Source of the DNA: a virus
Strand: one strand, 5' to 3'
DNA length: 64,000 nt
IMG/VR virus record: IMGVR_UViG_3300024348_000001
Span: 122,055 to 186,054 of that record
The translations under genes were made by a program, and so were the position numbers. The notes under the pieces are model-generated. The model did not search any database, was not told the origin of the DNA, and saw only the letters and a program-made list of their open reading frames with translations. Below, one piece after another: positions 19,696-57,546 of this stretch (position 1 is the first letter of the stretch; each line of letters begins with the position of its first letter).

Positions 19696-20634
19696 TCAGG
19701 CAAAGTCAACACGGGCCAGACCGGAAGTGTGTCCGATCGATCCGCCGAGGGTTTCATAAGCGAAGAACTCAATCATGTACGCTTCGCGACGGATGTACAT
19801 GGTGGTGTCTTCGAGAACGTACGACTTGCCGATGAACTTGGGGTCGGCGAAGTGATAGAAGGTGTTGGTTGGAACCAGACCCTTCTTGATGGTGACGACC
19901 CAACGGACACCCATGAATTCTTGAGCGGACCAGCCGTTTTTCATGATGTCTTCGCTGATCTGACCACCCATTTCGTTCCAACCGAACTTGCACACTTCCT
20001 TGATGGTAATGTTGTTCAGAAGGACCGAGTGCACTTCGAGGTTGCTCGGAGTGTTTGGCATGATCTTGAGCGAATCCCAAAGGGTATCGCGAGTGATACC
20101 GCCGGAGATGGTTTCGTACTGGACGGTGCCCGAGGTGGGAACAGTCAGACCAGCGCCTACGAGGGCGGTGTTCACAGCGCGAAGGAACTTGCTGTCTTCT
20201 TCAGCCAGCATGTCCTTGATACTGTTGTCCGACAACACCTGACGGATGTCCATGATCCAAGTTCTTAGTTCATCCACGTCTTTCGTAAAACGTGGGGTAA
20301 CGATACGGTCAAACATAACGCGGTAACGAGGACCACGGATGTAGAGGTTGGTCGGCAGAGTTGCGAAAGGAATCGAGATAGCTGCTGGGCTATCAGGTTC
20401 CTTGTCAACGATCTTTACTGGCTTGTCGGTGTCAACCTGACGATCCAGTTCGTCGTTGGTGATTGGAATCGGCGGCATAATCCGACGATAGAAACCATCT
20501 TCTCTCATTTTCGTGCGGGTAAAGTCATTGACAGCGTCAATAGCTTCCTTTTCCAGCATCGGGTCGCGAGAAGACAACTTCTCGAACACCGCGCGAGAAA
20601 TAAGCTTGCTCTCATCTTGAGTCAAAGCGGCCAT
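19696..20634 (-). CDS. Major capsid protein (HK97-like fold)
   Basis: 312 aa with strongly biased codons and GGAGG RBS, downstream of protease-scaffold-decoration genes. Contains DMLAEEDSKFL and FFAYETLGGSIG...ARVDF. Confidence 0.75.
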   Translation of the reverse strand: MAALTQDESKLISRAVFEKLSSRDPMLEKEAIDAVNDFTRTKMREDGFYRRIMPPIPITNDELDRQVDTDKPVKIVDKEPDSPAAISIPFATLPTNLYIRGPRYRVMFDRIVTPRFTKDVDELRTWIMDIRQVLSDNSIKDMLAEEDSKFLRAVNTALVGAGLTVPTSGTVQYETISGGITRDTLWDSLKIMPNTPSNLEVHSVLLNNITIKEVCKFGWNEMGGQISEDIMKNGWSAQEFMGVRWVVTIKKGLVPTNTFYHFADPKFIGKSYVLEDTTMYIRREAYMIEFFAYETLGGSIGHTSGLARVDFA

Positions 20635-21734: not shown

Positions 21735-22991
21735 TTAGCGCTTCTTCGAGCGAGAAAAAACTTCAGTCAAATAGCTTTCGGCCATTTTCGCCAGTGCCCG
21801 TTGCGTACGAGCCGATGACATTTTTTCGGAAGGAGCGGGAGGAAGTCCAGCACCTGCTTCAGCACCTTCATCGCCACCGTGGCCACCTTGCAGCAATGCC
21901 ATGATTTCTTCTTCAGGGATGCCCATTTGCTTGAGGGCTTCAATCAATTGTTCGGCTTTGGCCATTTCGTCGCCGCCTTCGCCGCCACCGTGGCCTTCTG
22001 CGCCCATACCACCGAGTGACGCAAGCATTTCAGCTTCGTTGCCGCCGGGTGCGCCACCCGCGCCACCCATGCCGCCGGGAGGTGCACCGCCGCCACCCTG
22101 AGCAACCGCTTCCTGCAACATGTCAGCTTCGGCCTGCTTACGCAGTTCGGCGCTGTGTGCAAGATGGTATTCAGCAAGCAAGTCAGCCTTCAACGATGCT
22201 GCTTTCACAATGTCGGAAAGCACTGAATGCACCATGTTGTCAGTTGCTTGTTTGTCCGAAATAACATTAGCAAGATCGTAACCAACTAATTGCGCAAGTT
22301 CGCCGTCAACGGCTTCTTTGTGCTCAAAGCGTTCTTGCTTCTTAGTTTCTTTTTTTTCGTGTGCATAGCCGTGGGTGCTTTCGTCTTCTGCCTTCTTAGC
22401 AGTCCACGCCACGTGTGCAATCTGTGCGACAAGCTCGTTGCCAATGTCGTTCATGTACGAAGCCAACTTCTCAAGTGAAGTGTAGTTGTCGTACGAGAAC
22501 TTGTGGCCGTCGAGGCTTTCGTTATCGGTACGGGCGGGATGCGCTGAATCCGAATCCTTCTTCCCGGCTTTGGCCGAGTTGGTTTCGTTAGCTGGATCTT
22601 CGCCGGTGGGTTGTTTGTTGGTACCGATTTGCAATTGGTCATCAGCTGCGCTACCGGGAGTAGAGACAGCGGATTCACTGCGCTTGACGTTGTACGTTGG
22701 CATTGCGGCGTAACGCGAAAGACCAGAAAGAATGTCGCGAGCGGACTTGGCAGTCGCAGCGCTATTAACGCCAACGGCACCCTGATCCTCTTTAACATCC
22801 TTATCGTTCTCGGCGCTGCGCGCACCTTCCTGAGCGACTTCGGTACGATCATCCACATCCTTCACAGGATGCGTTGTACCGCGTTGATAACCGCCAGCTT
22901 CGGTATTAGCTTCCGCACGCTTGACGGAGCCGCCAACGGTTGCCAGAAACTGTTCGATCGTATTGATCGAATTTTGCAATGAGGTGGACAT
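21735..22991 (-). CDS. Scaffold/core protein
   Basis: 418 aa, acidic and low complexity, between protease and major capsid genes; many K-x-A/S motifs and a Gly/Met/Pro tract. Confidence 0.55.
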   Translation of the reverse strand: MSTSLQNSINTIEQFLATVGGSVKRAEANTEAGGYQRGTTHPVKDVDDRTEVAQEGARSAENDKDVKEDQGAVGVNSAATAKSARDILSGLSRYAAMPTYNVKRSESAVSTPGSAADDQLQIGTNKQPTGEDPANETNSAKAGKKDSDSAHPARTDNESLDGHKFSYDNYTSLEKLASYMNDIGNELVAQIAHVAWTAKKAEDESTHGYAHEKKETKKQERFEHKEAVDGELAQLVGYDLANVISDKQATDNMVHSVLSDIVKAASLKADLLAEYHLAHSAELRKQAEADMLQEAVAQGGGGAPPGGMGGAGGAPGGNEAEMLASLGGMGAEGHGGGEGGDEMAKAEQLIEALKQMGIPEEEIMALLQGGHGGDEGAEAGAGLPPAPSEKMSSARTQRALAKMAESYLTEVFSRSKKR

Positions 22992-23066: not shown

Positions 23067-24572
23067 TTACACAACCTGATTTTGGCACAGACTCATCCTG
23101 CAAGTCAACAAAAAGTCAGCATTAGATTCTGTAGAAGCAATTTTAGTAAGAGCAGCAAGTTTATAAATAGCATACTCTCGCGCCAACGTCTCTCCAGAAC
23201 CGCCTACCGCCGCAATTCCATAAGTATCTATTACTTCTGGAACAGGATGCTGCCGCAGTGTAGACAACATACATCGACTATCCACTGCGGTTTTTTCTAA
23301 CGAATAACTTGACACTGCTCTGAGGGCGGCGTCACGTTGTGCTACCGATGATTGTTTTTCCAAAAGGGAATAACGAGAATTGCAAATATGCCGATCCAAA
23401 GAACCATCGGCAAGCATTCGACCATATACTCCCGGAAGTCGTCGCTGTGCATCAACAACAACCTCATGTGCCGTTTTGCAAAATTTAGCGTATTCCCGTA
23501 ATGGTAAAATAATCTTGCGCTCGGCCAAAGCACTTAAGGCCGCAGCTGTCTTTTCTGTGTCATTCACCAGCATCTGCAAATCCGCATAATTCAAACCAGC
23601 CTGTACGTTAGCAGCAAATGCTCTGCGTGTTTCTGAAGGTAACAACGCCCCTTGTTCAAGTACGTCAAGACCATACGCCAATTTTACCTGAACATTGACC
23701 CAAGGCCTATCGTATCTGTTGTGATCTTGCTGCAATACCAAAGATAGTGGCGCAACAACACCAAGAGCTTCTGCGGCCTCGGCTCCAAACTTGTCAAAGA
23801 AACCGCCGTCTGATGCAGCCTTCTGAAGCCAGTCAGCTTTATTGGCATAAGCAATACGGTCTGCGGGACGGAATACAAAAGAAATGTCAAAGTAACCGGG
23901 ATTAGGATTATCGACGTGCAGGTGATGCACGTCGTTACCCACTTTAATTAAGCGTGTGAGATTATCTTTGCATCCGCCTGCCTTGCACATCGAAGACGTG
24001 CAATATTCATCTCGTGTGCGCGCGCTGTGATTGCAGTAACTACAAACATCGTGGGCTACACGACAAGCCATGCTCACAGGGAGGTCTTGGCCCATAGCTA
24101 GTTTTTCAAGTTCTTTGTCCGCAACAAAACCTTTATTGCGTTCGGCAGCTTCTTTGGTTTTGTTAAGTCCTACAAGAAGTTCAACACGACGCATGGTGGG
24201 ATTGTAAGCAGACAGTTTTACAGAACCGTAACTCTGGAGTGGATCTTTGTTCTTGTGGTTGCGGTACCATTTAGCGTGCTTAACAAAAGAATCATGGCAC
24301 GATTTGCAAGTAGCTTCTTTGAATCCATCCCCGTTGCGATTGGGACCATAAGCTTCTGAGGCACCCAAAGCAATAAGATGCACAGGTTCTTCGTCTGCTG
24401 CAAATTTAACTTTGTCTAAGTATGGCAAAAAGATGTTAGCGGCATCTCCAGCCCTTTTAACGAAGTCAGATCTGTCCGCACCAGTAAGGCCACGGGACGC
24501 AATCTTAATCGTCGAAGCGATTGGGGCGTCGAAGTCCCAACCGCTTGGACTGATGATTTTGACCATTGCCAT
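23067..24572 (-). CDS. Prohead (capsid maturation) protease
   Basis: NRNGDGF, YRNHK (candidate catalytic His), PVSMAC (candidate catalytic Ser), followed by a CSYC...C...C zinc ribbon; lies upstream of scaffold and capsid genes. Confidence 0.7.
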   Translation of the reverse strand: MAMVKIISPSGWDFDAPIASTIKIASRGLTGADRSDFVKRAGDAANIFLPYLDKVKFAADEEPVHLIALGASEAYGPNRNGDGFKEATCKSCHDSFVKHAKWYRNHKNKDPLQSYGSVKLSAYNPTMRRVELLVGLNKTKEAAERNKGFVADKELEKLAMGQDLPVSMACRVAHDVCSYCNHSARTRDEYCTSSMCKAGGCKDNLTRLIKVGNDVHHLHVDNPNPGYFDISFVFRPADRIAYANKADWLQKAASDGGFFDKFGAEAAEALGVVAPLSLVLQQDHNRYDRPWVNVQVKLAYGLDVLEQGALLPSETRRAFAANVQAGLNYADLQMLVNDTEKTAAALSALAERKIILPLREYAKFCKTAHEVVVDAQRRLPGVYGRMLADGSLDRHICNSRYSLLEKQSSVAQRDAALRAVSSYSLEKTAVDSRCMLSTLRQHPVPEVIDTYGIAAVGGSGETLAREYAIYKLAALTKIASTESNADFLLTCRMSLCQNQVV

Positions 24573-29293: not shown

Positions 29294-32200
29294 TTATTCG
29301 CCAGTAGCTGCGTCAATGCTTGGATCAGGACGACCTACGCCGCTATCAAACATCACGCCACTTTGAACCGTCTTTTCCTTAAGGAAGAGTACCAGATCAC
29401 CCAGCACTTCAAACGCATTACGCAACGTATCTTCCAGTTCAGGCAAATCTTGTTTGCCGTACCTGTCCTCAAATTCTTCTTGATGCCAATAGAATAGGAA
29501 CAAGATACGACCTAGCTTGTCAAGAGCTTTCATTAAGTCGCCCAAGTACTTATCAACAAGACTGTCTTGGCGCACGGTCTTCAACATGCCACTAATCATG
29601 GCTGTGTCAAACACTTCTTTTTGCCCGGCTTGCGACGCCTGCTGTCCGACAAACATGGCTTTGGTATCAGGCATGTAGAACGGATCGTAAATCTTTGGAT
29701 CCGTCAGATTACTGTCCATGCCGGGAACCAAAGATGTGTACTCTTCAGGATACCGGGCTGGATACATGCCACGACCCACAGGTTCCTGTCCGTAGAAAGG
29801 CTCAGGGAAACCGGGAGTGTTAGGTCCGCCTGCAAGCACACTGTTGTTAAATGGCGCGGCATGCTTGACGAAATAACTTGTGGCAGAATTGTGCTTAGCA
29901 ACAGCGGATGCTTCCTTGAGCATTACGCGCGCCTGCTTCTCGGCCAAACCATGATCAGCTACGAGGTGAATCACTGCGGCCATTTTCTTAAGACGATGAT
30001 TTCCGTGCGTGGCTGATTGAATGTAGAAATCAGTACCGGTGTCTTGAATCTTAAGTGATGCCATTTTCTCGTACAGCATCAATTGGATATTTACCAAGTT
30101 ACCCAGTTCGATGGGTGAAGGATCAGACCGTGAGCCTGACTGGAAAGGCTTAGATTCGCAGCAAGGCATGAACGTAAAAGGACTATCGTCTTTGCGGCTA
30201 GTATCGTTCTTCTCTCTGACCTTAATCACCTTGTAGTCAGAGGGAATGAACATTTCCCCTGCCACCGTGCGAAGGTTAGTCCCGGGACGATTATTGATTG
30301 TGATCTTAGCGTCCCACGATTTGTAACCGTTCAAATTGTCATTCTGAGGGTGCATGCAAGTACGCGCTGCCAGATTACCGGGACGTGACAAATCAGCGTG
30401 ATCTAACCAACTGACACGATAAGCACCGTTACTCAATACTTCGGTAACTTCAAACGGGCATGTACCCGAGCCAATCTCGTGGATAGCTACATAAGTGTTG
30501 CCTACTTTGCAATCACTGATGTCGCTAAGACCGTTGACCCATTCCCTAAACACCGAGGGCAGTGGACAGTCACACGACTTTACAAACACATTGGTGCGGT
30601 GAGTGTGCAACCACGACCTTGGATCGTCTTTGCGAACAACCAATACAGTGTTTTCACGGCCACGACCTGACGCGGGATTGCTCAGTACAACCATCTCTGT
30701 AAAAGTGCCGGGCTTTTCCAATACCTCGTACACGCCACTCTCATTAGGATTCATCAGTTCCATTTTGACTTGCGTGTTGAACGCCATACTCACGTCTTGG
30801 GAATCACGCTTGTCAGTGATCAGAACGCCATCATCCAAAAGCTTCTTGCGATCATCATCTGTAGAGTTCAGCCTCTTGTTGTCGCCGTCCGTAATGGTCA
30901 CGTCGTTATCAGCTTCGGCTGATCGTTTCATCATGTCAGCAATCTTGTCCTGAATTTCATCAGGCAAAATATTCTTAAGTATGTCACCGTCAAAATCATC
31001 AGCGTCTCCCGACATCTGAATGTTTTGCATGGTGATCTTCAAAGCACCCGTTTTAATAGGATGCGTTTCACGCGCAGCAGGCAAAATGTCAAAAGACTTT
31101 TTTTCTTCCTTTTGTTTGCTGCCTGTCTTGCGACATGAATCATCAGAATATGGTTTCTTGCCGGGAACAGGTTCATATCCTTCCCAACAACGCGATTCTT
31201 TAGTCGAATCTGTAACGTCGTACGCCGTTTTAGGTTTCATCTGCGCCGACACAGGTGTTGTTGGAACCTTGTTCGCTGACGGTAATAATCCAGCAGGTTT
31301 ATTACCCGCAGCTAGTTGCGGCGCATTAGGCGTTGACCGTCCTGTGTTTTGCGCAAACATGGCTCCTGTTTGTGCCCGAGGGGTGCCCGTGCCCGTCAAC
31401 GACATAGAATTAAGATTAGAGTTTGGCTGACTCGCAACGTTTTGTCCCGACTGCGGTGTAAGCGATTGCCCGTTAAAATTCATCATTGATAACGGGAACG
31501 ATCCACCGGACGCACCCGTGTTCATCATCGGCTTATTCATGTCCACAGCGGTAGGCATATTCATCTGCCCACGCGTACGGAAACTAGAAGGATCGGCACT
31601 GGTTTTGACAATGCTCTTTGCGTCTTCCAACGCTACGCTCGCCATGTCAGCCCAGAAATTGGGTCCGTAAAACTTATCAAACCCTTCTTTGATCAAAGGA
31701 TAGGCCTGATACATTTTTTCGTACGCGGCTTTTAACAACGGAAAAGAACGCAACACGTTACGCATATCCAGATTTTCAGCCACCTTGGTATGCCGAGCAA
31801 ACAATATGTCATTACGATCGGCAACAACTGCGGCTAAGAACGGCAAGAATGGTTGTGCCCATTCCGAACAATTAAAACCAAGATCGGAACTAAACTTGGT
31901 AGCTACAGGAGGATTTGCCAAACGATTAAGGTTAGGCAGTAATCCACCTAGCTGGAATGTATTCTTGGCAGACGCTTCACCTAATACGTGAGGCTTGCGA
32001 CTAATGACGTGATTGACCCAGTTCTCTTTCATGGGAACAAACATATCTTGTTTCTTAAGATAAAGAAGTTCGTGTCCCTTGAGATCCCCGTTCAAAAAGA
32101 ATACGGGGGCGTAAAGCCATTGTTCGCCTACTTTAAAGCCAAAGATGCCTACGGCTTTAGTGTTGTCGTCGTTACGTTCGACCAACTGAAAGCCGATGAT

Positions 32201-32407
32201 AAAATCTAGAAGACGTGGAGCTTTGTCCTTTAAATAAGCGTAAGCAAGCGACGAAAATGCCTGCTCAAAACCTTCGGACTGCTCTCCACCAATCGTGGCT
32301 TGTTTCATCCAATGCTTTAAATGCTTATAGTCTGCTTTTTTATCTCGCCAGTACGTACCAACAACTGTAGCGACTTTCTCAAAGGAAAAAGAGAGTGTGC
32401 GTGACAT
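29294..32407 (-). CDS. Large putative head/inner-core protein
   Basis: 1037 aa; ordered-looking N- and C-terminal domains separated by low-complexity segments with K-x-A/S motifs. Confidence 0.5.
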   Translation of the reverse strand: MSRTLSFSFEKVATVVGTYWRDKKADYKHLKHWMKQATIGGEQSEGFEQAFSSLAYAYLKDKAPRLLDFIIGFQLVERNDDNTKAVGIFGFKVGEQWLYAPVFFLNGDLKGHELLYLKKQDMFVPMKENWVNHVISRKPHVLGEASAKNTFQLGGLLPNLNRLANPPVATKFSSDLGFNCSEWAQPFLPFLAAVVADRNDILFARHTKVAENLDMRNVLRSFPLLKAAYEKMYQAYPLIKEGFDKFYGPNFWADMASVALEDAKSIVKTSADPSSFRTRGQMNMPTAVDMNKPMMNTGASGGSFPLSMMNFNGQSLTPQSGQNVASQPNSNLNSMSLTGTGTPRAQTGAMFAQNTGRSTPNAPQLAAGNKPAGLLPSANKVPTTPVSAQMKPKTAYDVTDSTKESRCWEGYEPVPGKKPYSDDSCRKTGSKQKEEKKSFDILPAARETHPIKTGALKITMQNIQMSGDADDFDGDILKNILPDEIQDKIADMMKRSAEADNDVTITDGDNKRLNSTDDDRKKLLDDGVLITDKRDSQDVSMAFNTQVKMELMNPNESGVYEVLEKPGTFTEMVVLSNPASGRGRENTVLVVRKDDPRSWLHTHRTNVFVKSCDCPLPSVFREWVNGLSDISDCKVGNTYVAIHEIGSGTCPFEVTEVLSNGAYRVSWLDHADLSRPGNLAARTCMHPQNDNLNGYKSWDAKITINNRPGTNLRTVAGEMFIPSDYKVIKVREKNDTSRKDDSPFTFMPCCESKPFQSGSRSDPSPIELGNLVNIQLMLYEKMASLKIQDTGTDFYIQSATHGNHRLKKMAAVIHLVADHGLAEKQARVMLKEASAVAKHNSATSYFVKHAAPFNNSVLAGGPNTPGFPEPFYGQEPVGRGMYPARYPEEYTSLVPGMDSNLTDPKIYDPFYMPDTKAMFVGQQASQAGQKEVFDTAMISGMLKTVRQDSLVDKYLGDLMKALDKLGRILFLFYWHQEEFEDRYGKQDLPELEDTLRNAFEVLGDLVLFLKEKTVQSGVMFDSGVGRPDPSIDAATGE

Positions 32408-34077: not shown

Positions 34078-35517
34078 TTATGGAATGGCTTTTCCGTCCG
34101 CATCGTATTTGTTTTGACGCGGGGGTGAAGACGTTGTTGGTTTGTTAATATTGCCCGATGGAATGGCTTTTCCGTCCGCATCGTATTTCCTTTGAGACGG
34201 AGGTGAAGACGTTGTTCGTTTTCCAACAACGCCGGAATACGCCGGCGCCGACCTTTTAGTTTCTTCTCCCCACGCTCCGGGCGGAAGTAAATTATTTAAC
34301 ATGTTTAATGGCGCACTTACGGGTGTTCCCGCTGTTGCCAAAGCAGTTCCTAAAAGAGCAACTCGAGGATTTTGCATAATTCCGTTATAAGCATCTGCTA
34401 GAGCATCTTGCTGCTCAAATTTGCCGTGTTGCACATCTATCATTTTTTGTATTTGCGCGCGGTATTTGGGGTCATTCATGACAGCACTCATTTGAGTAGA
34501 TCCGCCAAGATGTCCACGTCGCCGCAAATCTTCAACAAACGCAGAATACGGCATTCCCATTATTTCGCCCTTTGGCCATTGTCCTGTCGCCTTGTGATAA
34601 GCATCCGCCACGTGAGCACTTTCACTTAATACAGCTGGTAATTCAGCTCCAAATATTGTGCGCGGAACTTCGTCTCGCCGCATTCGTGTTGGCACACTTT
34701 GCGTCGTATGCACGTGTTCGTGCAATCGAGCAGAGTCAGGACCAACCGAAGGATAATTTTTATTTAAAAGTTTAATGGCCGAATTATCTGGCGGATTTTG
34801 CCACGCTGAATCTGGCGGCATGTTCATAATTTGTGCGCTTTCTACGTTGGCGCCGATGGGACCCATTCTAACACCGGGATCCGTAAAATATTCATCGTAA
34901 TAAAACGGTCTTGATGTGCGTTGTTTAAACGCTATGTCTTTCATGTTTTTTAATGTTTTTTCAAATTCTTGTTTTTGCGGTGCTTTTGACGGATCACGGT
35001 ACAGTGCGTTAGCCGCAGAATACGTTTCGTGTCGTTCATCCCCGGGATGGAAACTAAATGCTTGTTGCGGTAAATATTCCGATAGCGGCCCTAACAACGA
35101 AGGCGGCACATTAAACCCAAACGGACGATGATTACTATAATGTTTTGCTAGCAATGTTTGATATGTGCGCATGTCCATCTTAGGACCATCATTTCCTGTC
35201 AAATCTTTGCCTGCGTACGGAAAATCTTTCTGGGGCACAAATTTAGCCGCACTACCGCGAAGCGTAGGATCTCCGTAAGCTTTATTTTCGCTAGGATTAA
35301 ATAAACTTCCAAATATTGGGGCATTTGTGTCAACAGGCTCTCCTATCGGTTTAATGCGTCCTGTCCTTGAACTGGTAGGAAATTTAGGTAAAAGCTCAGA
35401 TTCAAAATCACTAGAAAATTCCGGTATTGGCTTTGGTGTAGCTGCGCCAATAGACGCACTTGCTCCAGCCATCTTTACCCTAGCTGCTAACCGTCCAAGC
35501 TCGGATGCCGTAAGCAT
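34078..35517 (-). CDS. Leader-tagged cargo protein 2, possible zincin metallopeptidase
   Basis: Begins MLTASELGRLAARVKMA; LHEHVH (HExxH) followed by ELPAVLSE; C-terminal 26-aa duplication (TTSSPP...KYDADGKAIP). Confidence 0.65.
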   Translation of the reverse strand: MLTASELGRLAARVKMAGASASIGAATPKPIPEFSSDFESELLPKFPTSSRTGRIKPIGEPVDTNAPIFGSLFNPSENKAYGDPTLRGSAAKFVPQKDFPYAGKDLTGNDGPKMDMRTYQTLLAKHYSNHRPFGFNVPPSLLGPLSEYLPQQAFSFHPGDERHETYSAANALYRDPSKAPQKQEFEKTLKNMKDIAFKQRTSRPFYYDEYFTDPGVRMGPIGANVESAQIMNMPPDSAWQNPPDNSAIKLLNKNYPSVGPDSARLHEHVHTTQSVPTRMRRDEVPRTIFGAELPAVLSESAHVADAYHKATGQWPKGEIMGMPYSAFVEDLRRRGHLGGSTQMSAVMNDPKYRAQIQKMIDVQHGKFEQQDALADAYNGIMQNPRVALLGTALATAGTPVSAPLNMLNNLLPPGAWGEETKRSAPAYSGVVGKRTTSSPPSQRKYDADGKAIPSGNINKPTTSSPPRQNKYDADGKAIP

Positions 35518-35519
35518 AA

Positions 35520-38500
35520 TTACTCTACCTCCTCATCGAGTAACCCCAGATCGGGACTGTACTGGGTTGTCTGCTGCCTTAAAATTTTGTTCGTTTCCAG
35601 TAATTCTTTCAAACGCGCTGCTCGTAATTCTTCTTCTGTAGGTAACGCCGTCTGTGCTACAGAAATTGGTAATTCAGCAGGCTCTGGCGGTTCATAACGG
35701 CGTGCCGCAGCATTCTCAATGTCACGAATTGTTGTTACAGGCGTTGCCTCTCTGATCAAAGAAGCAATATCTGCGGCACGCTTATTACGAGCTCTGGCAA
35801 TACCGTCGGCAATACTATAAACGCTTTTCTTTTCTACCTTTTCAAGTTTGGTGTAGTACTTAAGATCTTCCACCAAATGATCTTTGGAAATGTCCGCAGC
35901 AATGGCAGGATTAGTGGTGTGCTCGGATTCCGTCTTAACACCCTTAGCCATTTCCTTCTTGGGAAAATCAGAGACGTTGTACTTGTCCCCAATGCCCCCC
36001 GGAAGAATGTCATCGGCGTGTTTGTACTGGTTTTTAAAATTGTCTAACAACGAATCAAGATTGTCTGCGCGCGTATTGTGTGTAAGCGTACCGGGCATGT
36101 TTCCAAATCTGCTCATATCTGACTTGTTGGAGTCATACAATTTCCGACCTAACTCAGAACGATATGCTTCAACTTCAGGCGTCCACGGGTTTCCTTTGGC
36201 TTCTACTCTCTGCTTAGTTCTATCTAGTCTTTGTTGCAAAAGCTCTGTTAATGGTGTCGTGACCAAAACACGATGCGGGTATTGCGCTAATTGTTGTTTA
36301 CGCAACGCAGCTAATTGCGTGCCTTCCACAATGGCACCGTCTTTTGCCGAATTAATCGTGTCGAGTGCCATACGTCGAGCTGCATCAAGATAACGCCTAC
36401 GTTCAATCGATCCGGGCGTCATGTGTTTGTTTTCAGGGTCATTCTTAAATATCTGTTTGAGTGCAGGATGATCATCAATACTCGTGACAGGTAAACCCAA
36501 AGCATCACTAAGTTGTTTTGCCACCGTGGATTTGCCTGCGCCACTATGTCCGCTAATTAAAATAACTTTGGATGGATCAGTTTCTGCGCATTTAACAAAA
36601 TACAGGTCGTCACTAGCGTGTTTATCCGTACCAGTACTATTACTTAAAAATCCTCTGTCTGTTCCAAGCATGCTTAAAAGTTTTTGTTTGTGCTCCGGAG
36701 CCATGTCTTTCATGGCTTCATCTTCATCCCTAACACGATATTCTGGGGCCATCGCAGAATACATGGGACGTGTGCCTAAAAGTTGTTCTGCTGCACGACT
36801 GGGGACTGTGCCTGTTAAACCCTTATCTGTAACTGCAAGCCTAAACCGATCAGCCATGTTTTGTTTAAACGTAGCATCGTCGTGCATCGCTGAATCGGAC
36901 GGATCGTACATATTGGACATGCGGTACGCCAAGTGATGTATGGCGTTTAACCTAGCAGCATCTGCGTTCGACAAATTAACTGATGTCATTTGCTGGGGTA
37001 CGGCCAAAGGCGCAAACGTTACAGGTTTGCCTGTTTTTGCTTGGATCCGCGTGGCTAGTTCATCAAAAACATTTTTACGTTGGGCTTCATCGCCGTTAAA
37101 CGCTAATTCGACATTACCTGTTTCTTCGTTGTTGACGCCTAAACCCGATATGCCTTTTTCGTCTAACAAAGCGTGGTACAGCTTTCGCAGACCTACACCC
37201 TGAACACTGTCGCCATTTGCTGTGTACACTTCCGCAAACTTAATGTGTTGCTGAGGCAGAATGTCGTCATTGGCAACTTTGTTGTTAGATTTGTCACCAT
37301 GCCGTTTCAACACAATCCCTGATGTCTGCAACGCGTCCCAAAGGTTTTTAATTTCCTCGACGTTTATAGGCTTCACGGCTTTGCGTGCAATTCTCTCAGT
37401 AGGCATTAACCGAGGATCTTCAGCAAAGTCTGTGGAAGGTAAATGATGTAAGAACCCGCTTTTGCCTTTATAAATCTTTTCAAAGGCACCGGGGTATCGT
37501 TCTTCTAAAACATAAGGTTCGTTGTTAGTACTCCCCAAGGACAAATCAGCATCTGTCCACGGAGCCATAAAACTCAAAGCTAACTCACGATTAGGTGTTC
37601 CAAAAACCGCAGCTTCGTTGTTAATCACACGGCTAGGGCGTGGTTCAATGTTTTTTAATCTTAAAGAAGACCCGTGGTACAACGCGTCACTAGATAACTT
37701 CTCAGTGTCGGTGCTAGGAGTCATAGGCGTGGCTACGGGCGTATTCAAATCAGGCTTTACGCCAGTCTTAGGTTGCTGGATCAAACCAACTCTACCAAAG
37801 TCAACAGTTCTTGCTAATCCGGGTACGAAGCTTGTGCCTGTAGCCGAACTCGTGGAACCTCTGTGTGTAGCATCCAACAAACTACTCTTAAGCCCCGAAC
37901 CATACATCCTCGTCATCCAGTCGGGGTCATGATGCAAATTGTACATCGCCCTAACCATCTCTGGCTGAAACGGCGCAGGCTTGTCGTGAACCGTAACGTC
38001 CTTAACACCAAAGTACGTCATGTCCTTGAGCATGCTTGGCTTTACCTGCGTGCCAATAGAATAATGCAACACAGGTTTCTCTAAATACTTATTCAAAGCT
38101 CTACTGGGTTCTAATGTCTGAAAACCTTCACGGGGTTTGTATCCATGCTCCAACGTTGAATAAGGAATCACGTCATCGGGTACGTGATCTCCGTATTCCT
38201 CTGTCATTCTCACGTGATCTATCAAACCACGACCAATAAGCTCAATGTTCCTTCTGTGGGAACGAAGCCCCATAGATCCCATAGATTCCTTAAAAGCCTT
38301 AACAAAATACTTGCGGCCTTCGCCTATGCCCTTATGTTGCGTAATGATGGAAGGATTGGGCATGCCTTCGCTAATAACATCTCCGGCTTCAACCTCATCT
38401 CCCGGTTTAACGTTAATCTCAAAACCATGACCTACGTACTGGGGTTTGTCATTAATAAATACGTACTTACCGCCAGCAGGAGCGTCTTCTATTTTCTGAA

Positions 38501-39629
38501 CTTTACCGTCTACAAGCGTGTGTGCAGCTCCACCTTTAAATGTCTTGGGTACTTGAATCAATTGGTTGATGTATTGGAAACCACCTACCGTCTTTTCTTG
38601 TCCCGCAACACCACCCGAGTGCTTTGATCCTAATTGTCCTTGGCTGATAGGTTCTGCAATAGCTTGGGCTGCTGTCATGCCCACCATCTCTCCACGCCCC
38701 GGAAGCGTACCTCTTTCCCTAACACCTACGTCACGAGCATAAACACCGCCATCAGGACTGCCACCCGTCATTGGACTGCGCACCAAGATACGATCGAACT
38801 TACGTGCCTTAAGGTCTTTCAGAATCTTAGGCGTTAATACCGTGTTGCGCTTGTAACCACCAAAGTCAAACGCTAACAATGCGCCTTCATTGTCCATGTC
38901 GTCGGTGTCTACGGGTAATCCTCTAATGCCTAAATCTTGACGTGGATCATCTTGATCAACAACGGCAAGCCTGTGTGCTACTTGATTAAGTTGTTTGCCG
39001 AAGAAGCCTGCATCCGCCGTAGCAAACTTAGTTGCAATAACACCCTTACGCGCGCCATATGTACCAGCCCAATACTCGGCAGGAGTTAACCCTTGAGAAT
39101 AGCTTTTAAGTACAGGCACAGGAATGATGTCACCCCTATGATCTTCGTACAACAAGTCGGCACCGCGTAATGATGCCAAATTCATCTTGTTGCCACGAGA
39201 GCCCGACATGATCTGCATAGCGATTGGGTTTTTTTCAGCCAAACTATCTGTGTACACGTCATCCATTAGTTTTTGCTGATATCCGCCAACAGTTTTAATC
39301 ACAAGTTCGTTACGTTGCTTGTCAGTCAGATAAGGGTTAGCCAGCAACTTTTTAACTTTGCCTCTGATTTCGGCCAGAGTTGCTTTAGCTCCGGCTGTTT
39401 GCGTCAATGCGCCTAAACCAAAGCTAAAGCCACCTGTTTCCGTTGCAACCTGTCGTCCGATGTTAGCCAGTTTCTGACTTACCTCTACGTATTTGTCAGG
39501 ATGCTTATCGGCTAATTCTCTTAGCAGTGTCTGCAACGAAGACTTGTTAAAAACCGTATTGCGCCCACGCATGCTTTCAGGCAATGCATCTTCAATCATC
39601 AATTTGCCGACGGTGCTGCGCGTGATCAC
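35520..39629 (-). CDS. RNA polymerase beta' C-terminal subunit fused to ART-like, acylphosphatase-like, P-loop kinase and DUF5661-like domains
   Basis: Bridge helix GARKGVIATKFATADAGFFGKQL and trigger loop AAQAIAEPISQGQLGSKHSGG. After the core come YHGSS, VQGVGLR, GHSGAGKS and ESEHT...DHLVEDLKYYTKL. Confidence 0.85.
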   Translation of the reverse strand: MITRSTVGKLMIEDALPESMRGRNTVFNKSSLQTLLRELADKHPDKYVEVSQKLANIGRQVATETGGFSFGLGALTQTAGAKATLAEIRGKVKKLLANPYLTDKQRNELVIKTVGGYQQKLMDDVYTDSLAEKNPIAMQIMSGSRGNKMNLASLRGADLLYEDHRGDIIPVPVLKSYSQGLTPAEYWAGTYGARKGVIATKFATADAGFFGKQLNQVAHRLAVVDQDDPRQDLGIRGLPVDTDDMDNEGALLAFDFGGYKRNTVLTPKILKDLKARKFDRILVRSPMTGGSPDGGVYARDVGVRERGTLPGRGEMVGMTAAQAIAEPISQGQLGSKHSGGVAGQEKTVGGFQYINQLIQVPKTFKGGAAHTLVDGKVQKIEDAPAGGKYVFINDKPQYVGHGFEINVKPGDEVEAGDVISEGMPNPSIITQHKGIGEGRKYFVKAFKESMGSMGLRSHRRNIELIGRGLIDHVRMTEEYGDHVPDDVIPYSTLEHGYKPREGFQTLEPSRALNKYLEKPVLHYSIGTQVKPSMLKDMTYFGVKDVTVHDKPAPFQPEMVRAMYNLHHDPDWMTRMYGSGLKSSLLDATHRGSTSSATGTSFVPGLARTVDFGRVGLIQQPKTGVKPDLNTPVATPMTPSTDTEKLSSDALYHGSSLRLKNIEPRPSRVINNEAAVFGTPNRELALSFMAPWTDADLSLGSTNNEPYVLEERYPGAFEKIYKGKSGFLHHLPSTDFAEDPRLMPTERIARKAVKPINVEEIKNLWDALQTSGIVLKRHGDKSNNKVANDDILPQQHIKFAEVYTANGDSVQGVGLRKLYHALLDEKGISGLGVNNEETGNVELAFNGDEAQRKNVFDELATRIQAKTGKPVTFAPLAVPQQMTSVNLSNADAARLNAIHHLAYRMSNMYDPSDSAMHDDATFKQNMADRFRLAVTDKGLTGTVPSRAAEQLLGTRPMYSAMAPEYRVRDEDEAMKDMAPEHKQKLLSMLGTDRGFLSNSTGTDKHASDDLYFVKCAETDPSKVILISGHSGAGKSTVAKQLSDALGLPVTSIDDHPALKQIFKNDPENKHMTPGSIERRRYLDAARRMALDTINSAKDGAIVEGTQLAALRKQQLAQYPHRVLVTTPLTELLQQRLDRTKQRVEAKGNPWTPEVEAYRSELGRKLYDSNKSDMSRFGNMPGTLTHNTRADNLDSLLDNFKNQYKHADDILPGGIGDKYNVSDFPKKEMAKGVKTESEHTTNPAIAADISKDHLVEDLKYYTKLEKVEKKSVYSIADGIARARNKRAADIASLIREATPVTTIRDIENAAARRYEPPEPAELPISVAQTALPTEEELRAARLKELLETNKILRQQTTQYSPDLGLLDEEVE

Positions 39630-42816: not shown

Positions 42817-42840
42817 GGGTGATTCCTTAAATGCTTATTG
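42753..42840 (-). repeat. RBS+leader DNA cassette, copy B
   Basis: Matches copy A (84/86) and copy C (64/65). Confidence 0.95.
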
Positions 42841-43845: not shown

Positions 43846-43869
43846 GGGTGATTCCTTAAATGCTTATTG
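43805..43869 (-). repeat. RBS+leader DNA cassette, copy C
   Basis: 64/65 identical to 42776..42840. Confidence 0.95.
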
Positions 43870-46800
43870 AATGATTTCTACAGGATCGTCTGCTTGGATA
43901 TCTCCACGCTTATATGCGGCTATGGCATCTTGTCTTGACGCAAACACACGAGGTCTCCGTGCTGACGTTTGACTCGACGCATGGTACAAGCCTCCAATAT
44001 ACTCGTTAACAGGCCCATGCACGACAGATTTGAAGTCGGCCGGGTGAAATAAGTTCTTAGAAGGCATCATTCTGTCGTAGGCTTCTCTAACGGCAGCTTC
44101 GCTTGTAGGCACGTGAAACTGCATTGCGTCTCCGTCAAAGTCTGCATTGAATCCTTTTACAATCAACGGAGAAATCTGCATAACATCGCCACTGACTAAT
44201 CGTGGTTTAAATGCCATGATGCCAAACCTGTGCAACACGGGCGCACGGTTGATAAACACAGGCCGCGTTTCCATTTCTTTTAACAATGCGTCTTTAGCCA
44301 ATGCCGTCTTATCCTTAACGTGCCTTAACGCTTCACCCATGGGCATACCCAGACGCTTCAATCGCCTAATCAAAAATTTGTTGTAAACTTCAAACGCTTT
44401 ACCTTCAGGAATGCCTACCGTATCCATATCGTAATCGGGGTTAGGCGTAATTACAGCTCGCCCTACGTTGTCCACAGTCGATGACAGCAATTTACGCTGT
44501 ACCGTCCCAAACTTAGGCGAGTTACCGAAAATTGATTTAAGAATGCCTGAAACATTCTTTTCTTGAAGCTTAGGGTGAATAGGATCGCCAAGCCCTGTGA
44601 TTGCTTTAAAAGAATCGTAAATGGCCAACCTTTCCGACCCCGTATCGTTAAGGCCTACCATGTCCTTCATAGACTTAAAATTAGCCGTAGCGTCCAGCAA
44701 TTCTTTGTATAAGTAATTAGGGTCTGCTACCAAAGGAATACCCGAACTGCCCATGACGGTAACAGGTCTAAAGATAGGCGGAAGCACAGGTACAGCGTCA
44801 AGAATCCAATCTTTAGGATGCAGCCCGTATTTCTCTGCACCTTTGAGGTAACCTAACCTGCGAATGGCATTGTCGCGTGCTGCTTTGTTGCTGCCGTTGA
44901 CTTGCGCCCTAGCTACGTCGATCTCACGTTTGACGTTTAGTTCCGCCAAGGCTTTAGCTATTGCTTGAGGCCCTGTGCCATATCTGCCAAGGATATGCTC
45001 TCCGCCAATCGTGTCTCTAAGTTGTTGCTGCGTTAGACCCAACAAACGTCTAGCGGGTTCTTCCATCACAGGATTAAGAGTTGGCTCGGGTAATTCAATC
45101 TTGGCCCATTGTCTGCCGTTGTGTCCTCCAGTTAACTTTGGATCAAACAGACCGCCTGCAATAGGCTCCATGTTTTTATCAAAGCGAACTGTTTCTCCTG
45201 ACCTAACAACACGATCTGCCGTTAATTGTTTAACGTCACTATTGGTCATGGCCATTACATTGGTTTCTTGGCCATTTGATACAACGTTAATACCTGCGGC
45301 TTTAAGTGAGTTTACAAACTTTTCGTAAATCAAAGGCACCTTGGGTTCAATCGGCGTGTGTCCCTGCATGAACTGTGTCCAATACTCTTCGTTCTTTTGC
45401 CCGCGAATAAGCCCTGCGTCTCGAATGGTTTCTGTAGCACCGTGAGACAACAACGCATTAACGTCCAACATGGAAATACGCTTGGACCCTGATTCTCCAC
45501 CCTTTGCAGGAGCATCTTCTGACGAGTATGCGCCTGACCCACGACCTTGCCCTTTTGATTCCGCCGTGTGATGCAACTTCATGTAGAAACGATTACCAGT
45601 AGCAACGTTATTGACGTATTGATTTCTCGTCACGTCCATAATGTTTTCTGTGCCCTTAAGATTGTATTTCTTAAGTTGCTGTTCCGCCCATTCTGTCATG
45701 TCCTCGATGTCTTCAAAGTCGGGTACAGCAATAGATTTACCTGTTAGCTCTGCGATCTTGCCTAGCATCAATTCCACTTTTTGGGCTGGATTGGTTCTTG
45801 TCACAATACCGAGGGGATTTAGCAATACCTCAAATGGTCGGCCTTGGGAATCTGTAGGCATTTGATGGTCAGGAACAATAGCTGCGATAACGCCTTTGTC
45901 GCCATATCTACCACTCATCTTGTCACCCACTTGCGTAGGGACAATTGATTTAACCAACACCACAGGGCCATTCTTGCTTTGTACGATATCTGTTACTACG
46001 CCCGGATCATGGTGTTTCCACAATACAGACACATCTCCAAACGCCCGCGCACCTTGTTTGTGAATCTTGTTCTGTGGAGATTCCTTTTCCTGCGCACCTA
46101 AGATCAAAGGTTGGTCATACGTTACAGTCTGTCCAACCTTGATAATGCCGTCGTCGTCCATCGTATCCAATAATTGCTTATCGTATTTCTGTGGAAACAA
46201 GGATATGTAATTCCTTTTCCCCATTTTATGTTGATCTGTTACTTCAAGTTCGTGTTGATACATATGCTCTGAAGACATGCGCTTAGCCATGCCTTCGGAA
46301 ATGACGTTAGCGTCTTCAAAGTTGTAACCTTTCCATGGCATATAGGCAGTGCGAGCATTCAACCCCAGTGCCATGGCTCCGTCTTTATCCGTAAAGTTAG
46401 ACCTGACGATTGTTTGTCCTTGTTTGAACATATCTCCGGGCTTCAGCGCCGTAGACTGATGCAACATTGTTTTGCGATTAAATGGATGGTTCTGAAACAG
46501 CTCAATTTCGTCTTTGCTTCCATCTGCGTAGCGTAATTTAACAATACCGTCACTTATGTCTGTAATCTGTCCATCTTGGGCCGCTCTAACAGCACCCATG
46601 TGGACGCCAAACTCGTGTTCAAAGTCTTTAGTGCCTTTTGTGCCGGGAAGAGCACCCCGCACAAAAGGAGCTTCTCCGTCTTTCAATGGCAACGCTTGTG
46701 TCAACATACGACTGGCCATAGCCATACGTTGTGCTTTGACCGCAGACTTAATAGGAATCAGATTACCTAGTGCTGAGAATGCATCTTCAAACGCTGGAAG

Positions 46801-48360
46801 TTCGTAATCAATTTCTTCTCTAGGCACATATGTGATTTTGCCTGATTTCATAGCAGGCACGCGGTTATCGTCGCTTTTCAACGCTCCGGGAAACGCTACG
46901 GCGACATCTGCAAGTTCTTGAGGAGAACGCCATACTGTTTCACCTGTCTTCAAATCCCTGAACTGAGCATAGATCTTGCCGTCGGGTCCTTTACGGGCAC
47001 CTCGAGCAATGTGAGTATCTACCCCTGCTCTCATGCTCTCTGGCGTGCGTACAGGATCCATGAATCCCATGTGAGAAGGTTGCACACTGCGAGCTTCATC
47101 GGGAATGGCATCCATGCTTGGGATACCACCTTCTCCCAAACGTGTGATCTTAGTGTGCTTATCAAGGATTTCGGCAGGATTGATTTCTTCAAGGTTCTGT
47201 CCAAGCCCTGAACCAAGAAGTGCCTGTTCAAGTTGAGGTGTCATTACTCCTGTAGGCATGCTTTTTAAACTGCCTTGGAATGATGCTTTGTAAAATGCGG
47301 CTCTGCGCATGCCCGAATGATCTCGTTCAACACGCTCACGCAACAAATCTTCCGGTCCGTGAAAAGTCTGATAGGCCAAATGGTCACGGTCATCCACTTC
47401 TTGTTCACCGCGCGACACCGCTAAGAGTTTTTTAGTCGTAGCAAGAATGGCGTCTTTGTTCATTCTGTCAAAAGCTGTGCCCAATGTTCTTTTAGTAACA
47501 AAGGGATCTAGCTCCATTCTTTCAAACACGTCCGTAAGCTTCTGCCGCGTCGTTGTTTCATCGCCTTCTAGGTCTTTGGCTTTGAGTAATCTGGCTTTAA
47601 GTTTTTGCACAACGGCAGAATCATTCTCTTTGTAATTAGCGGCGTAAATTTGATCTCCCCACGCTTCTTTGATTTCGGCGTCTGTGGCTCCCATAGATTT
47701 AAGCAAAGGCATCAAAGGCAATTCACCCTGTCCCAATTTAAGTTTGTACACATTTGTTTCTGGGTTGAGCATGTACCTGTGAGAAATGCCTTTGCCCGGT
47801 AATACGTTGGCGTGCGCTTCTAATTCTCCGTTAGATTTAATACGCGTGTAGACGCCGGGTTTGAGCCTTTGCTGTGCAGTTAAGGTGTACTCGCTGCCGT
47901 TGTGGACCATGGTGCCGTATTTAGTCACATAAGGCACATTAGCCAACACCTGATCACGGGCATCAATGACTTGGCCCGTGATGTTGTCCATAAGCTCCCA
48001 CGTGCCTTTAAGACGACGGCCCATGGTCTTACCACCCAACACCGCATCTTTGTGCTGTTTGTTGGAATAGAGTTCGGGATCAATGTATCTGACACCATTC
48101 AAACGCAATGTGTGCTTTTCATTAGAAATGGGTTGAATAGCGGATGCCGCAGCTAATACAGAATCGTAAATAGCTTTGCGTGTGGAACTAACGTCCGAAA
48201 ATGATCTGAGTTGATCCATAGACGGTGATGTAAATTGCGGCTTAGGTGGTGCCGGTAAAATCGACATGTCACCGGCCATAGGAGGCACCGGTGACATGGC
48301 ATCTAACTTGGCGGGTAAAGCACTCGCTGTTGGGCGAGCTGGAGGCAATATAGAATCCAT
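43864..48360 (-). CDS. RNA polymerase beta subunit fused to N-terminal (catalytic) part of beta'
   Basis: beta motifs: DPVRTPES, GDKMSGRYGDKG, FYMKLHH, GGESGSKRISMLDVNAL. beta' motifs: LLSSTVDNVGRAVI, NRAPVLH, and catalytic NADFDGD. Confidence 0.92.
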   Translation of the reverse strand: MDSILPPARPTASALPAKLDAMSPVPPMAGDMSILPAPPKPQFTSPSMDQLRSFSDVSSTRKAIYDSVLAAASAIQPISNEKHTLRLNGVRYIDPELYSNKQHKDAVLGGKTMGRRLKGTWELMDNITGQVIDARDQVLANVPYVTKYGTMVHNGSEYTLTAQQRLKPGVYTRIKSNGELEAHANVLPGKGISHRYMLNPETNVYKLKLGQGELPLMPLLKSMGATDAEIKEAWGDQIYAANYKENDSAVVQKLKARLLKAKDLEGDETTTRQKLTDVFERMELDPFVTKRTLGTAFDRMNKDAILATTKKLLAVSRGEQEVDDRDHLAYQTFHGPEDLLRERVERDHSGMRRAAFYKASFQGSLKSMPTGVMTPQLEQALLGSGLGQNLEEINPAEILDKHTKITRLGEGGIPSMDAIPDEARSVQPSHMGFMDPVRTPESMRAGVDTHIARGARKGPDGKIYAQFRDLKTGETVWRSPQELADVAVAFPGALKSDDNRVPAMKSGKITYVPREEIDYELPAFEDAFSALGNLIPIKSAVKAQRMAMASRMLTQALPLKDGEAPFVRGALPGTKGTKDFEHEFGVHMGAVRAAQDGQITDISDGIVKLRYADGSKDEIELFQNHPFNRKTMLHQSTALKPGDMFKQGQTIVRSNFTDKDGAMALGLNARTAYMPWKGYNFEDANVISEGMAKRMSSEHMYQHELEVTDQHKMGKRNYISLFPQKYDKQLLDTMDDDGIIKVGQTVTYDQPLILGAQEKESPQNKIHKQGARAFGDVSVLWKHHDPGVVTDIVQSKNGPVVLVKSIVPTQVGDKMSGRYGDKGVIAAIVPDHQMPTDSQGRPFEVLLNPLGIVTRTNPAQKVELMLGKIAELTGKSIAVPDFEDIEDMTEWAEQQLKKYNLKGTENIMDVTRNQYVNNVATGNRFYMKLHHTAESKGQGRGSGAYSSEDAPAKGGESGSKRISMLDVNALLSHGATETIRDAGLIRGQKNEEYWTQFMQGHTPIEPKVPLIYEKFVNSLKAAGINVVSNGQETNVMAMTNSDVKQLTADRVVRSGETVRFDKNMEPIAGGLFDPKLTGGHNGRQWAKIELPEPTLNPVMEEPARRLLGLTQQQLRDTIGGEHILGRYGTGPQAIAKALAELNVKREIDVARAQVNGSNKAARDNAIRRLGYLKGAEKYGLHPKDWILDAVPVLPPIFRPVTVMGSSGIPLVADPNYLYKELLDATANFKSMKDMVGLNDTGSERLAIYDSFKAITGLGDPIHPKLQEKNVSGILKSIFGNSPKFGTVQRKLLSSTVDNVGRAVITPNPDYDMDTVGIPEGKAFEVYNKFLIRRLKRLGMPMGEALRHVKDKTALAKDALLKEMETRPVFINRAPVLHRFGIMAFKPRLVSGDVMQISPLIVKGFNADFDGDAMQFHVPTSEAAVREAYDRMMPSKNLFHPADFKSVVHGPVNEYIGGLYHASSQTSARRPRVFASRQDAIAAYKRGDIQADDPVEIIQ

Positions 48361-52029: not shown

Positions 52030-52047
52030 GTTTAACCCCTTAAGCAC

Positions 52048-54195: not shown

Positions 54196-54210
54196 CACTA
54201 ACTCCTTGTG

Positions 54211-55716: not shown

Positions 55717-55726
55717 CGTTGACTCC

Positions 55727-57411: not shown

Positions 57412-57546
57412 GTGCAGTCTCCGTGCCAAAACATTAAGTGTTTAATATAACATACCACCACAAAAGAACATTATCGCCAAACTCTAAGCAAGATCCTGTC
57501 TGACCGATTCATGACTGGCGTAATAAGGCTGATCATGGGGGCTCCA

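Follow-up and report, generated by a model that had tools for sequence, protein, structure and literature searches.

A phage RNA polymerase subunit with a tail of exchangeable enzyme-like modules joined at a recurrent K-x-[AS]-x-D motif

Introduction

Why would a subunit of a multisubunit, cell-type RNA polymerase (RNAP) end in a long chain of unrelated enzyme-like domains? This question is raised by a gene encoding the C-terminal half of the RNAP beta' subunit in a 64-kb stretch of viral DNA (positions 122,055 to 186,054 of IMG/VR record IMGVR_UViG_3300024348_000001, hereafter the window), which is the last part of a 186-kb viral contig with a completeness of 86% by CheckV. The polymerase core of this 1369-residue protein is followed by a tail of 730 residues (those after residue ~640), which an earlier note, made from the DNA alone, had described as a set of passenger domains bounded by K-x-A/S motifs and freed by the prohead protease of a virion that packages the polymerase. 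The best reading of the data presented below, to which we assign a probability of roughly 0.55, is indeed that the tail consists of passengers on the RNAP subunit that would be packaged with it, released by the head protease and delivered to the host.

Architecture of the tail

The gene, its polymerase core and the successive parts of the tail are arranged as follows, in the order of the protein.

35520..39629, minus strand: complete gene, comprising the C-terminal half of RNAP beta' and the cassette tail; 1369 aa from a GTG start
37710..39629, minus strand: RNAP beta' C-half core, residues 1 to ~640; Pfam Rpb1_5 (1.3e-18) and Rpb1_4, phrog_25354 and phrog_3015
37686..37703, minus strand: junction 1, E-K-L-S-S-D, residues 643-648, core/tail boundary; low confidence in the AlphaFold2 (AF2) model
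37284..37685, minus strand: Module A, ADP-ribosyltransferase (ART)-fold domain, residues 649-782; AF2 model and structural matches
37266..37283, minus strand: junction 2, N-K-V-A-N-D, residues 783-788; linker with a low predicted local distance difference test (pLDDT)
36627..37265, minus strand: Module B, residues 789-1001, an acylphosphatase-like ferredoxin domain followed by a further alpha/beta subdomain; Pfam, AF2 and structural matches
36609..36626, minus strand: junction 3, D-K-H-A-S-D, residues 1002-1007; low-pLDDT stretch that ends the Module B model
36027..36608, minus strand: Module C, P-loop kinase, residues 1008-1201; Pfam AAA_18 (2.6e-07) and AAA_33 (7.8e-06)
36009..36026, minus strand: junction 4, Y-K-H-A-D-D, residues 1202-1207; other variants enter DUF5661 via the same D-D-I-L-P-G-G join
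35787..36008, minus strand: Module D, DUF5661, residues 1208-1281; Pfam PF18905, 29.2 bits against a cut-off of 27
35769..35786, minus strand: junction 5, N-K-R-A-A-D, residues 1282-1287
35523..35768, minus strand: C-terminal piece, residues 1288-1369 (82 residues), no family match; replaces the 700-1000 aa low-complexity tails of other variants

The GTG start of the 1369-aa open reading frame (ORF) matches public gene calls for the same protein. The four domain identities proposed earlier (ART-like, acylphosphatase-like, P-loop kinase and DUF5661-like) were borne out by Pfam, AF2, Foldseek and VIA-align, and all enzyme activities attributed here to the modules are predictions.

Module A, modelled by AF2 with a pLDDT of 89.4, found nearly exclusively ADP-ribosyltransferases among its top 50 VIA-align matches, with Z values from 7.7 (root-mean-square deviation 2.8, 75 aligned residues) down to about 4.2. 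The Tpt1-type structure 9ld3 came first (Z 7.7), followed by the Rhs toxin TreX (7.5), Arr (7.2), PARP16 (7.0) and pertussis S1 (6.7), and diphtheria-type toxins were also found. Foldseek returned Arr with a probability of 0.99, together with viral matches labelled Arr, DarT and PolyVal-ART. The Z values are moderate, but the uniformity of the match list makes the ART fold a safe assignment. In an alignment of 23 homologues the stretch Y651-H652-G653-S654 was nearly invariant (H652 in at least 90%), an invariant F676 lay in a V-F-[AG]-T strand, and two glutamates, E710 and E745, did not vary. H652, F676 and E710 would be the catalytic positions, as judged from their spacing and not from a residue-level superposition. 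Pfam gave nothing at threshold for this module (below threshold, DUF6886 appeared in 5/23 homologues and ART-PolyVal in 1/23, E 0.026), and a profile search of PDB sequences gave no match.

The acylphosphatase-like part of Module B exceeded the Pfam cut-off (PF00708, 23.5 bits versus 22.5), with close homologues scoring 26.9-28.4 bits. The AF2 model (pLDDT 87.6) matched acylphosphatases in Foldseek (probability 0.99-1.0, 20-29% identity) and gave VIA-align Z values of 8.4-8.6, HypF-ACP and the V. cholerae AcP both reaching 8.6. Its fold is the ferredoxin-like beta-alpha-beta-beta-alpha-beta one, with the phosphate-binding loop V-x-G-x-V-Q-G-V-x-F-R of acylphosphatases. The module retains V-Q-G-V-G-L-R (with R815) and N833-x3-G-x-V, R815 and N833 being present in at least 90% of 18 aligned sequences; from general knowledge of acylphosphatases, we take these two residues to be catalytic. 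Acylphosphatase itself is a single enzyme of ~90 residues, to which Module B adds a conserved alpha/beta extension of ~120 residues, both parts lying in one confident model.

The Walker A motif of Module C is G-H-S-G-A-G-K-S at residues 1027-1034, and its matches among PDB sequences (adenylate, shikimate and deoxynucleoside kinases) were weak. Atlas searches with Module D and with the C-terminal piece gave no match, and a literature search on DUF5661 found no papers.

A motif at every junction

The earlier note had quoted seven motif strings, all of which are present (EKLS at residue 643, NKVA at 783, IKFA at 796, DKHA at 1002, VKCA at 1012, YKHA at 1202 and EKKS at 1266), although the nucleotide ranges given for them were 3 nt short at the 5' side. 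As a marker of junctions, the bare K-x-A/S motif did not hold up: it occurs at chance frequency, with 16 sites versus 14 expected in the whole protein and 8 versus 8.5 in the tail, and was discarded as a significant feature of the tail for that reason. What does mark the junctions is an extended form, K-x-[AS]-x-D, found five times in the tail versus 0.62 expected (0.22 expected for the stricter K-x-[AS]-[ASNDG]-D, which also occurs five times), neither count having been reached in 3000 shuffles. Its sites, at residues 644, 784, 1003, 1203 and 1283, all lie in the tail, and the 640-aa RNAP core has none. At the junctions the motif usually continues with D or A and then I or L. Around the first three sites (residues ~641-650, 782-796 and 999-1011) AF2 confidence is low and disorder is predicted. 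Moreover, N-K-K-A-D-D, which matches junction 5, follows DUF5661 in two unrelated proteins (P0041 and P0049).

The four main junctions use different synonymous codons, which means that the peptide is conserved and not the DNA. The possibility that the junctions are DNA repeats acting as recombination signals was ruled out on the same ground.

Constant cores and changing tails

At least 40 contigs, drawn from JGI, ENA, Logan and NCBI, carry the 1369-aa protein or close variants of the same length, so the fusion is real and an assembly artefact, which the earlier note had named as a possible refutation, was ruled out. That note had also predicted a constant core with variable tails, and this is what was observed: six tail architectures, the 1369-aa form included, are carried by cores 86-99% identical, and four more occur in relatives at ~59% identity.

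One variant has 1229 residues and is 97% identical throughout, except that it lacks exactly Module A. The missing segment is bounded by junctions 1 and 2, and the breakpoint lies within the motif, where junction 1 leads directly into the D-I-L found after junction 2. Among the other variants, one of 1183 aa has Modules B and C followed by a half-deleted Module D; one of 2106 aa continues after B and C with DUF4269, what remains of D and a long tail; one of 1684 aa has DUF4269 followed by D and a long tail; and one of 1615 aa has D and a long tail. All four leave the core at E-K-L-S-S-D and proceed to D-I-L.

Four viral contigs with cores 57-60% identical have either no tail or long Pro/Ala/Gln-rich tails without enzyme domains. 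The long low-complexity extension present in most beta' C-half variants may serve packaging or ejection. PHROGs searches with the long variant tails returned matches to the RNAP core only, apart from a weak ATPase match on the kinase module of P0169.

The polymerase genes lie in the head-gene block

The neighbourhood of the gene includes its partner subunit and the following putative head genes.

19696..20634, minus strand: putative major capsid protein, 312 aa; weak match to phrog_2522, major head protein (6.5e-4)
21735..22991, minus strand: scaffold-like protein with five K-x-[AS]-x-D sites; role suggested by the adjoining capsid gene
23067..24572, minus strand: putative head-maturation protease of 501 aa; four K-x-[AS]-x-D sites; a language-model lead
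29294..32407, minus strand: portal-like protein; role suggested by size and position, immediately downstream of the RNAP gene in relatives
43864..48360, minus strand: partner subunit of 1498 aa, in which RNAP beta is joined to the N-terminal half of beta'; Pfam Rpb2_6 (1.1e-51), Rpb1_2 (6.7e-24) and Rpb2_3

The beta and beta' homologues are thus phage-encoded and distributed over several polypeptides. The protein encoded at 43864-48360 is the sole beta homologue here and in three relatives (one Rpb2_6 match per genome in the four genomes); two of the four genomes checked for RNAP sets are complete with terminal repeats, and these have one set each. This single set of the clade is split at an unusual place, with beta and the beta' N-half on one chain and the beta' C-half on the other.

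All large genes from ~57 kb to the start of the window are on the minus strand and include a tail sheath gene and the weak major-head-protein match, which places the RNAP genes inside a structural block, specifically among the head genes. This position suggests that the polymerase is produced together with virion proteins and packaged, and argues for a virion enzyme, short of proof. The RNAP genes adjoin the portal-like gene in all relatives examined, and the ribosome-binding site of the next gene lies within the last codons of the 35520-39629 ORF.

Pfam, PHROGs and PDB sequence searches with the head-block proteins were mostly blank, and the portal-like protein (29294..32407) had no family match.

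The motif recurs in head proteins and ends the leaders of neighbouring genes

The junction motif is shared by the proteins of this block. K-x-[AS]-x-D occurs 36 times in the head/RNAP-block proteins versus 8.3 +/- 2.9 expected (~4-fold), or 31 times versus 7.6 without the gene studied here, while the tail-structure genes have 7 versus 4.9 expected (1.4-fold). The shorter K-x-[AS] is concentrated near the N-termini of head-block proteins (39 sites at residues 9-45 versus 19.7 +/- 4 in shuffles); at these residues the reversed motif was not enriched, nor was K-x-[AS] in other gene blocks.

The putative capsid protein has two motif sites in its first 35 residues. The first of them, F-E-K-L-S-S-R-D, has E-K-L-S-S in common with junction 1 of the tail, the D being one residue further on in the capsid protein. 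Out of 1633 homologues at E <=1e-5, the 120 listed are 81-99% identical and keep both sites in nearly all cases. These listed homologues are often on contigs of 180-240 kb, and none of the 120 has a Pfam domain or an informative name. The portal-like protein has a conserved N-terminal K-x-A-x-[IL]-G-G. In a complete relative at ~59% identity (G001), the capsid, portal-like, scaffold-like and protease-like proteins carry K-x-[AS] at equivalent places in their N-termini.

In addition, the products of nine neighbouring genes, unrelated in their bodies, have at the N-terminus a common leader in which K-x-A comes after the core T-A-x-[ED]-L-G-x-[LF].

32490-34034, minus strand: leader gene
34078-35517, minus strand: leader gene
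41710-42816, minus strand: leader gene
42835-43845, minus strand: leader gene
50851-52047, minus strand: leader gene
53641-54198, minus strand: leader gene
54211-54528, minus strand: leader gene
54550-55737, minus strand: leader gene
56869-57429, minus strand: leader gene

A tenth copy of the leader is internal, at residue 227 of a 398-aa protein. A relative whose RNAP core is 86% identical (L006) has the leader too, and a search of the complete G001 genome with the leader pattern found none. A 216-aa protein of G001 has K-Q-G at the corresponding position, and both the shared leader and the Peptidase_C39 gene discussed below are absent from that genome.

At the other end of the protein studied here, the last residues (35523-35560, minus strand) read S-P-D-L-G-L-L followed by an acidic stretch, and the long-tailed variants end otherwise. 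This ending echoes the [ED]-L-G-x-L of the leader core and may represent the same signal placed at the C-terminus.

The same modules in other phage proteins

A HMMER search with the tail returned 4487 proteins at E <=0.001. Among the best 150 of these, 72 have Module A, 39 Module B, 47 Module C and 13 Module D (BLASTP, E <=1e-5); the module-bearing proteins range from 110 to 2637 residues, and 20 of them combine at least two modules. In other long phage proteins the modules are accompanied by InPase, NUDIX, Zn_peptidase_2 and LigD_N domains, so the resemblance to phage polyvalent proteins that the earlier note had pointed out was upheld. Stand-alone homologues of Modules A to D in other phages start with leaders of ~10-25 residues, with K-x-A directly before the domain. 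Overall, K-x-[AS] lies no more than 16 aa upstream of the module in 29/63 homologues of A, 32/36 of B, 14/48 of C and 8/12 of D, the background rate being 0.165.

The same ART-like module is also found N-terminal to the beta' N-half in four proteins, one of which has InPase as well and another an intein, indicating that the link between this ART family and phage multisubunit RNAPs is recurrent. A 1708-aa protein of another phage (P0018) has a beta' N-half preceded by this ART-like module and Module B; it also has a LAGLIDADG domain, read as an intein, inside the polymerase part.

How the tail may be used

In the reading that we favour, the RNAP would be made together with the virion proteins and packaged in the capsid, with the tail carried along. 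Inside the head the tail would be cut into free enzymes, namely an ART-fold enzyme using nicotinamide adenine dinucleotide, an acylphosphatase-like enzyme, a P-loop kinase and the DUF5661 protein, which would then enter the cell with the DNA and the polymerase. Since each module brings its own site, recombination within the linker could gain, lose or exchange modules while leaving the polymerase undisturbed. K-x-[AS]-x-D is most likely the recognition site of the head-maturation protease, because the motif ends cargo leaders, clusters in scaffold- and protease-like proteins and sits in the N-terminus of the capsid protein. The earlier proposal of a head-maturation signal is accordingly sustained as regards the enrichment in the head block and the retention of the checked sites in relatives, whereas for the protease itself there is at present a candidate.

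A wider version of this reading, which we advance tentatively and consider somewhat doubtful, would extend it to the whole, unannotated clade of ~180-240 kb phages. These would use K-x-[AS]-x-D both as the cut site of the head protease and as a universal cassette joint for injected enzymes, so that modules could move among leader-tagged genes, polyvalent proteins and the RNAP tail, with the polymerase as the delivery vehicle. The commonest passenger would be the unnamed ART family, acting on host transcription or RNA ends at entry.

Several observations weigh against the packaged-passenger reading. The source phage (~200 kb) is uncultured and known from metagenomes only. The ART-fold Z values of Module A do not go beyond 7.7, and a phenylalanine would take the place of the usual tyrosine in the H-Y-E triad. 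In the Module B family the K-x-A is at a fixed distance from the first strand (32/36 homologues) and could consequently belong to the fold instead of being a cut site. The homologues are related to each other, hence the counts made across them are not independent. A six-frame search with hidden Markov models for the HK97-type and T4-type prohead proteases (Peptidase_S78 and S77) gave no match, and no protease was found at family thresholds. Finally, K-x-[AS]-x-D is mildly enriched in early-region proteins too (24 versus 13.2 expected), and neither RNAP subunit carries the N-terminal leader of the neighbouring cargo genes.

The main rival explanation, which we regard as unlikely, is that the tail stays attached and its modules act in cis on the nascent RNA, the template or host transcription factors. 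The ART-fold domain and the kinase could then modify RNA ends, and K-x-[AS]-x-D would stand for flexible linkers doubling as recombination joints. It is in line with this that a Tpt1-type RNA 2'-phosphotransferase heads the structural matches of Module A, that the kinase falls in the AAA_33/AAA_18 group of small-substrate P-loop kinases, that cassette insertions and deletions break inside the motif, and that at least five architectures join the ART-like module to an RNAP subunit, which could reflect a functional link to transcription. Against it, the motif is strongly enriched in scaffold-like, protease-like, capsid and leader proteins, which have no modules to link, and it ends the leaders of stand-alone homologues, where there is no upstream domain. 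Furthermore, near-identical phages freely drop or replace modules, even to the point of keeping a half-deleted DUF5661, and this fits accessory cargo better than a core role in transcription. The synonymous differences between junction codons also speak against a joint maintained as a DNA recombination signal.

Less probable still is that the polymerase is not packaged at all and works inside the cell as a middle or late RNAP, its tail recruiting or modifying host factors and the motif serving, for instance, turnover by a host protease. The missing leader and the mild early-region enrichment mentioned above are what this explanation has in its favour. Yet in every relative examined the RNAP genes are embedded among portal-like, capsid and leader-cargo genes, all tightly spaced and sharing one strand. 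The motif enrichment is specific to the head block (~4-fold, set against the 1.4-fold of the tail-structure genes), and the module families co-occur with domains of polyvalent proteins, which are predicted, in the part of PMC5512222 used here, to be injected.

Which protease?

Two genes of the window come into consideration. For the 501-aa candidate (23067..24572), the nearest named Atlas clusters are Peptidase_S78 and S77 (0.87-0.89), a language-model match that serves as a lead only; this protein had no Pfam or PDB sequence match. The other gene lies among the leader genes.

52048-52494, minus strand: Peptidase_C39 domain, 148 aa; Pfam 4.4e-13

C39 enzymes cleave after Gly-Gly, Gly-Ala or Gly-Ser. 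That this peptidase cuts the junctions as the leader-processing enzyme of the cargo, in place of a prohead protease, is improbable: its Pfam score, its position among the nine leader genes and the resemblance that the leader core E-L-G-x-L-x-A appears to have with the helix of double-glycine leaders recognised by C39 can be invoked for it, but the residues at the would-be Gly-Gly position of the shared leader are not small, the junctions have no Gly-Gly, Gly-Ala or Gly-Ser, and the gene is absent from the four relatives at ~59% identity (three of them 94-100% complete by CheckV), which keep K-x-[AS] in their capsid, portal-, scaffold- and protease-like proteins. A role of C39 as the general K-x-A protease is unlikely for the last of these reasons. 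The C39 gene is adjoined by a calcineurin-like phosphoesterase gene (52519-53259, minus strand).

Comparison with known systems

One close parallel is with the polyvalent proteins that phages and conjugative elements encode (Iyer et al. 2017, PMC5512222), described there as single polypeptides with 2-15 distinct, mostly enzymatic domains (InPase being one of the domain types) and predicted to be injected; they include N4-like virion RNAPs fused to an ART and a metallopeptidase. The tail resembles them in having several unrelated enzyme domains per chain, a mosaic architecture in relatives and a gene located among virion genes, in combining an RNA polymerase with an ART on one chain for which proteolytic release of parts has been proposed, and in the co-occurrence of the homologues of its modules with InPase, NUDIX and Zn_peptidase_2. 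It differs in that a multisubunit, cell-type RNAP supplies the carrier subunit, whereas the N4 enzyme is a single-subunit one; in that release would need an external protease acting at the linker motif and not a built-in peptidase; and in that the cassettes vary between phages with 86-99% identical cores. None of MuF, MPTase, ART-PolyVal, the DarB-type helicase/methylase or InPase was detected in the 1369-aa protein at Pfam thresholds.

The phiKZ-like jumbo phages have a virion-packaged multisubunit RNAP proposed to be injected with the DNA (review PMC7824862). Split beta/beta' homologues in a large phage are common to both, packaging being suggested here by gene context. The phiKZ-like phages have two RNAP sets (virion and non-virion) and the present clade one, and its division, with the N-half of beta' joined to beta and the C-half on its own, is unlike theirs. 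The sections of the review used here report that Bacillus phages have an HD phosphohydrolase fused to part of the beta subunit and that the non-virion beta' bears a C-terminal domain, and describe no swappable enzyme tails.

In phage T4, cargo proteins are encoded by separate genes and bear N-terminal targeting peptides, and the prohead protease cuts after [LI]-x-E. As in T4, the cargo proposed here includes an ART (its packaging suggested by context) and a short motif recurs in scaffold, capsid and cargo proteins; unlike in T4, the cargo forms one chain with a polymerase subunit, the recurring motif reads K-x-[AS]-x-D, and its processing is predicted from sequence. The T4 ART is Alt, packaged in the head and delivered with the DNA (PMC5512222), and the processing of head cargo by prohead proteases is established (PMC10052503).

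Finally, the RNAP-encoding metagenomic Caudovirales known as mReC (Weinheimer and Aylward 2020, PMC7481178) are likewise uncultured and have beta/beta' homologues, with some contigs exceeding 200 kb. Their capsids match the T4-type family PF07068, whereas the putative capsid protein of the window has no precomputed Pfam domain. Term searches of PMC7481178 found no mention of subunit tails or of virion packaging. A collection of phage isolates gave as closest relatives proteins just 24-28% identical, none with a tail, and no cultured member of the clade was found in it. Relative to the sections used of PMC5512222, PMC7824862, PMC10052503 and PMC7481178, two features appear to be new: a subunit of a multisubunit RNAP carrying exchangeable enzyme cassettes, and a linker motif that matches the sites in the phage's own head proteins.

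Significance

If the packaged-passenger reading is true, a cell-type multisubunit RNAP serves as the chassis for the first-strike enzymes of a phage, and one linker motif provides a readable rule for finding packaged and processed proteins in an abundant, unannotated phage group. The analysis also defines an ART-fold family, as yet unnamed, that recurs in association with phage RNAP subunits, and it brings out that the acylphosphatase-like domain and the kinase form a conserved pair. The natural, near-isogenic phages that differ by single cassettes are ready material for testing each passenger.

Further observations on the locus and its relatives

Between the two RNAP genes (40833-41618, minus strand) lies a gene for a 261-aa protein in which F-V-P-S-G-D-P and Pro/Gly/Met-rich repeats come after a K-V-A site. 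The gene is conserved and occupies the same position in all relatives, with K-x-[AG] retained.

The relative without a tail, G001, carries the kinase module elsewhere, in a locus (L019, G001:C1:61795-65397) where ORFs of 486 and 421 aa follow each other in one frame with a single TAA between them and K-x-A sites in both. The 486-aa ORF holds the body of a 105-aa leader protein of the window directly after K-I-A, and a NUDIX-like gene comes next.

A conserved DNA box, ATAAGCATTTAAGGA, is present with variants directly 5' of the starts at 34034, 42816, 43845, 52029 and 54528, which belong to several of the leader genes. The box includes the ribosome-binding site and may be a promoter, an operator or a recombination handle.

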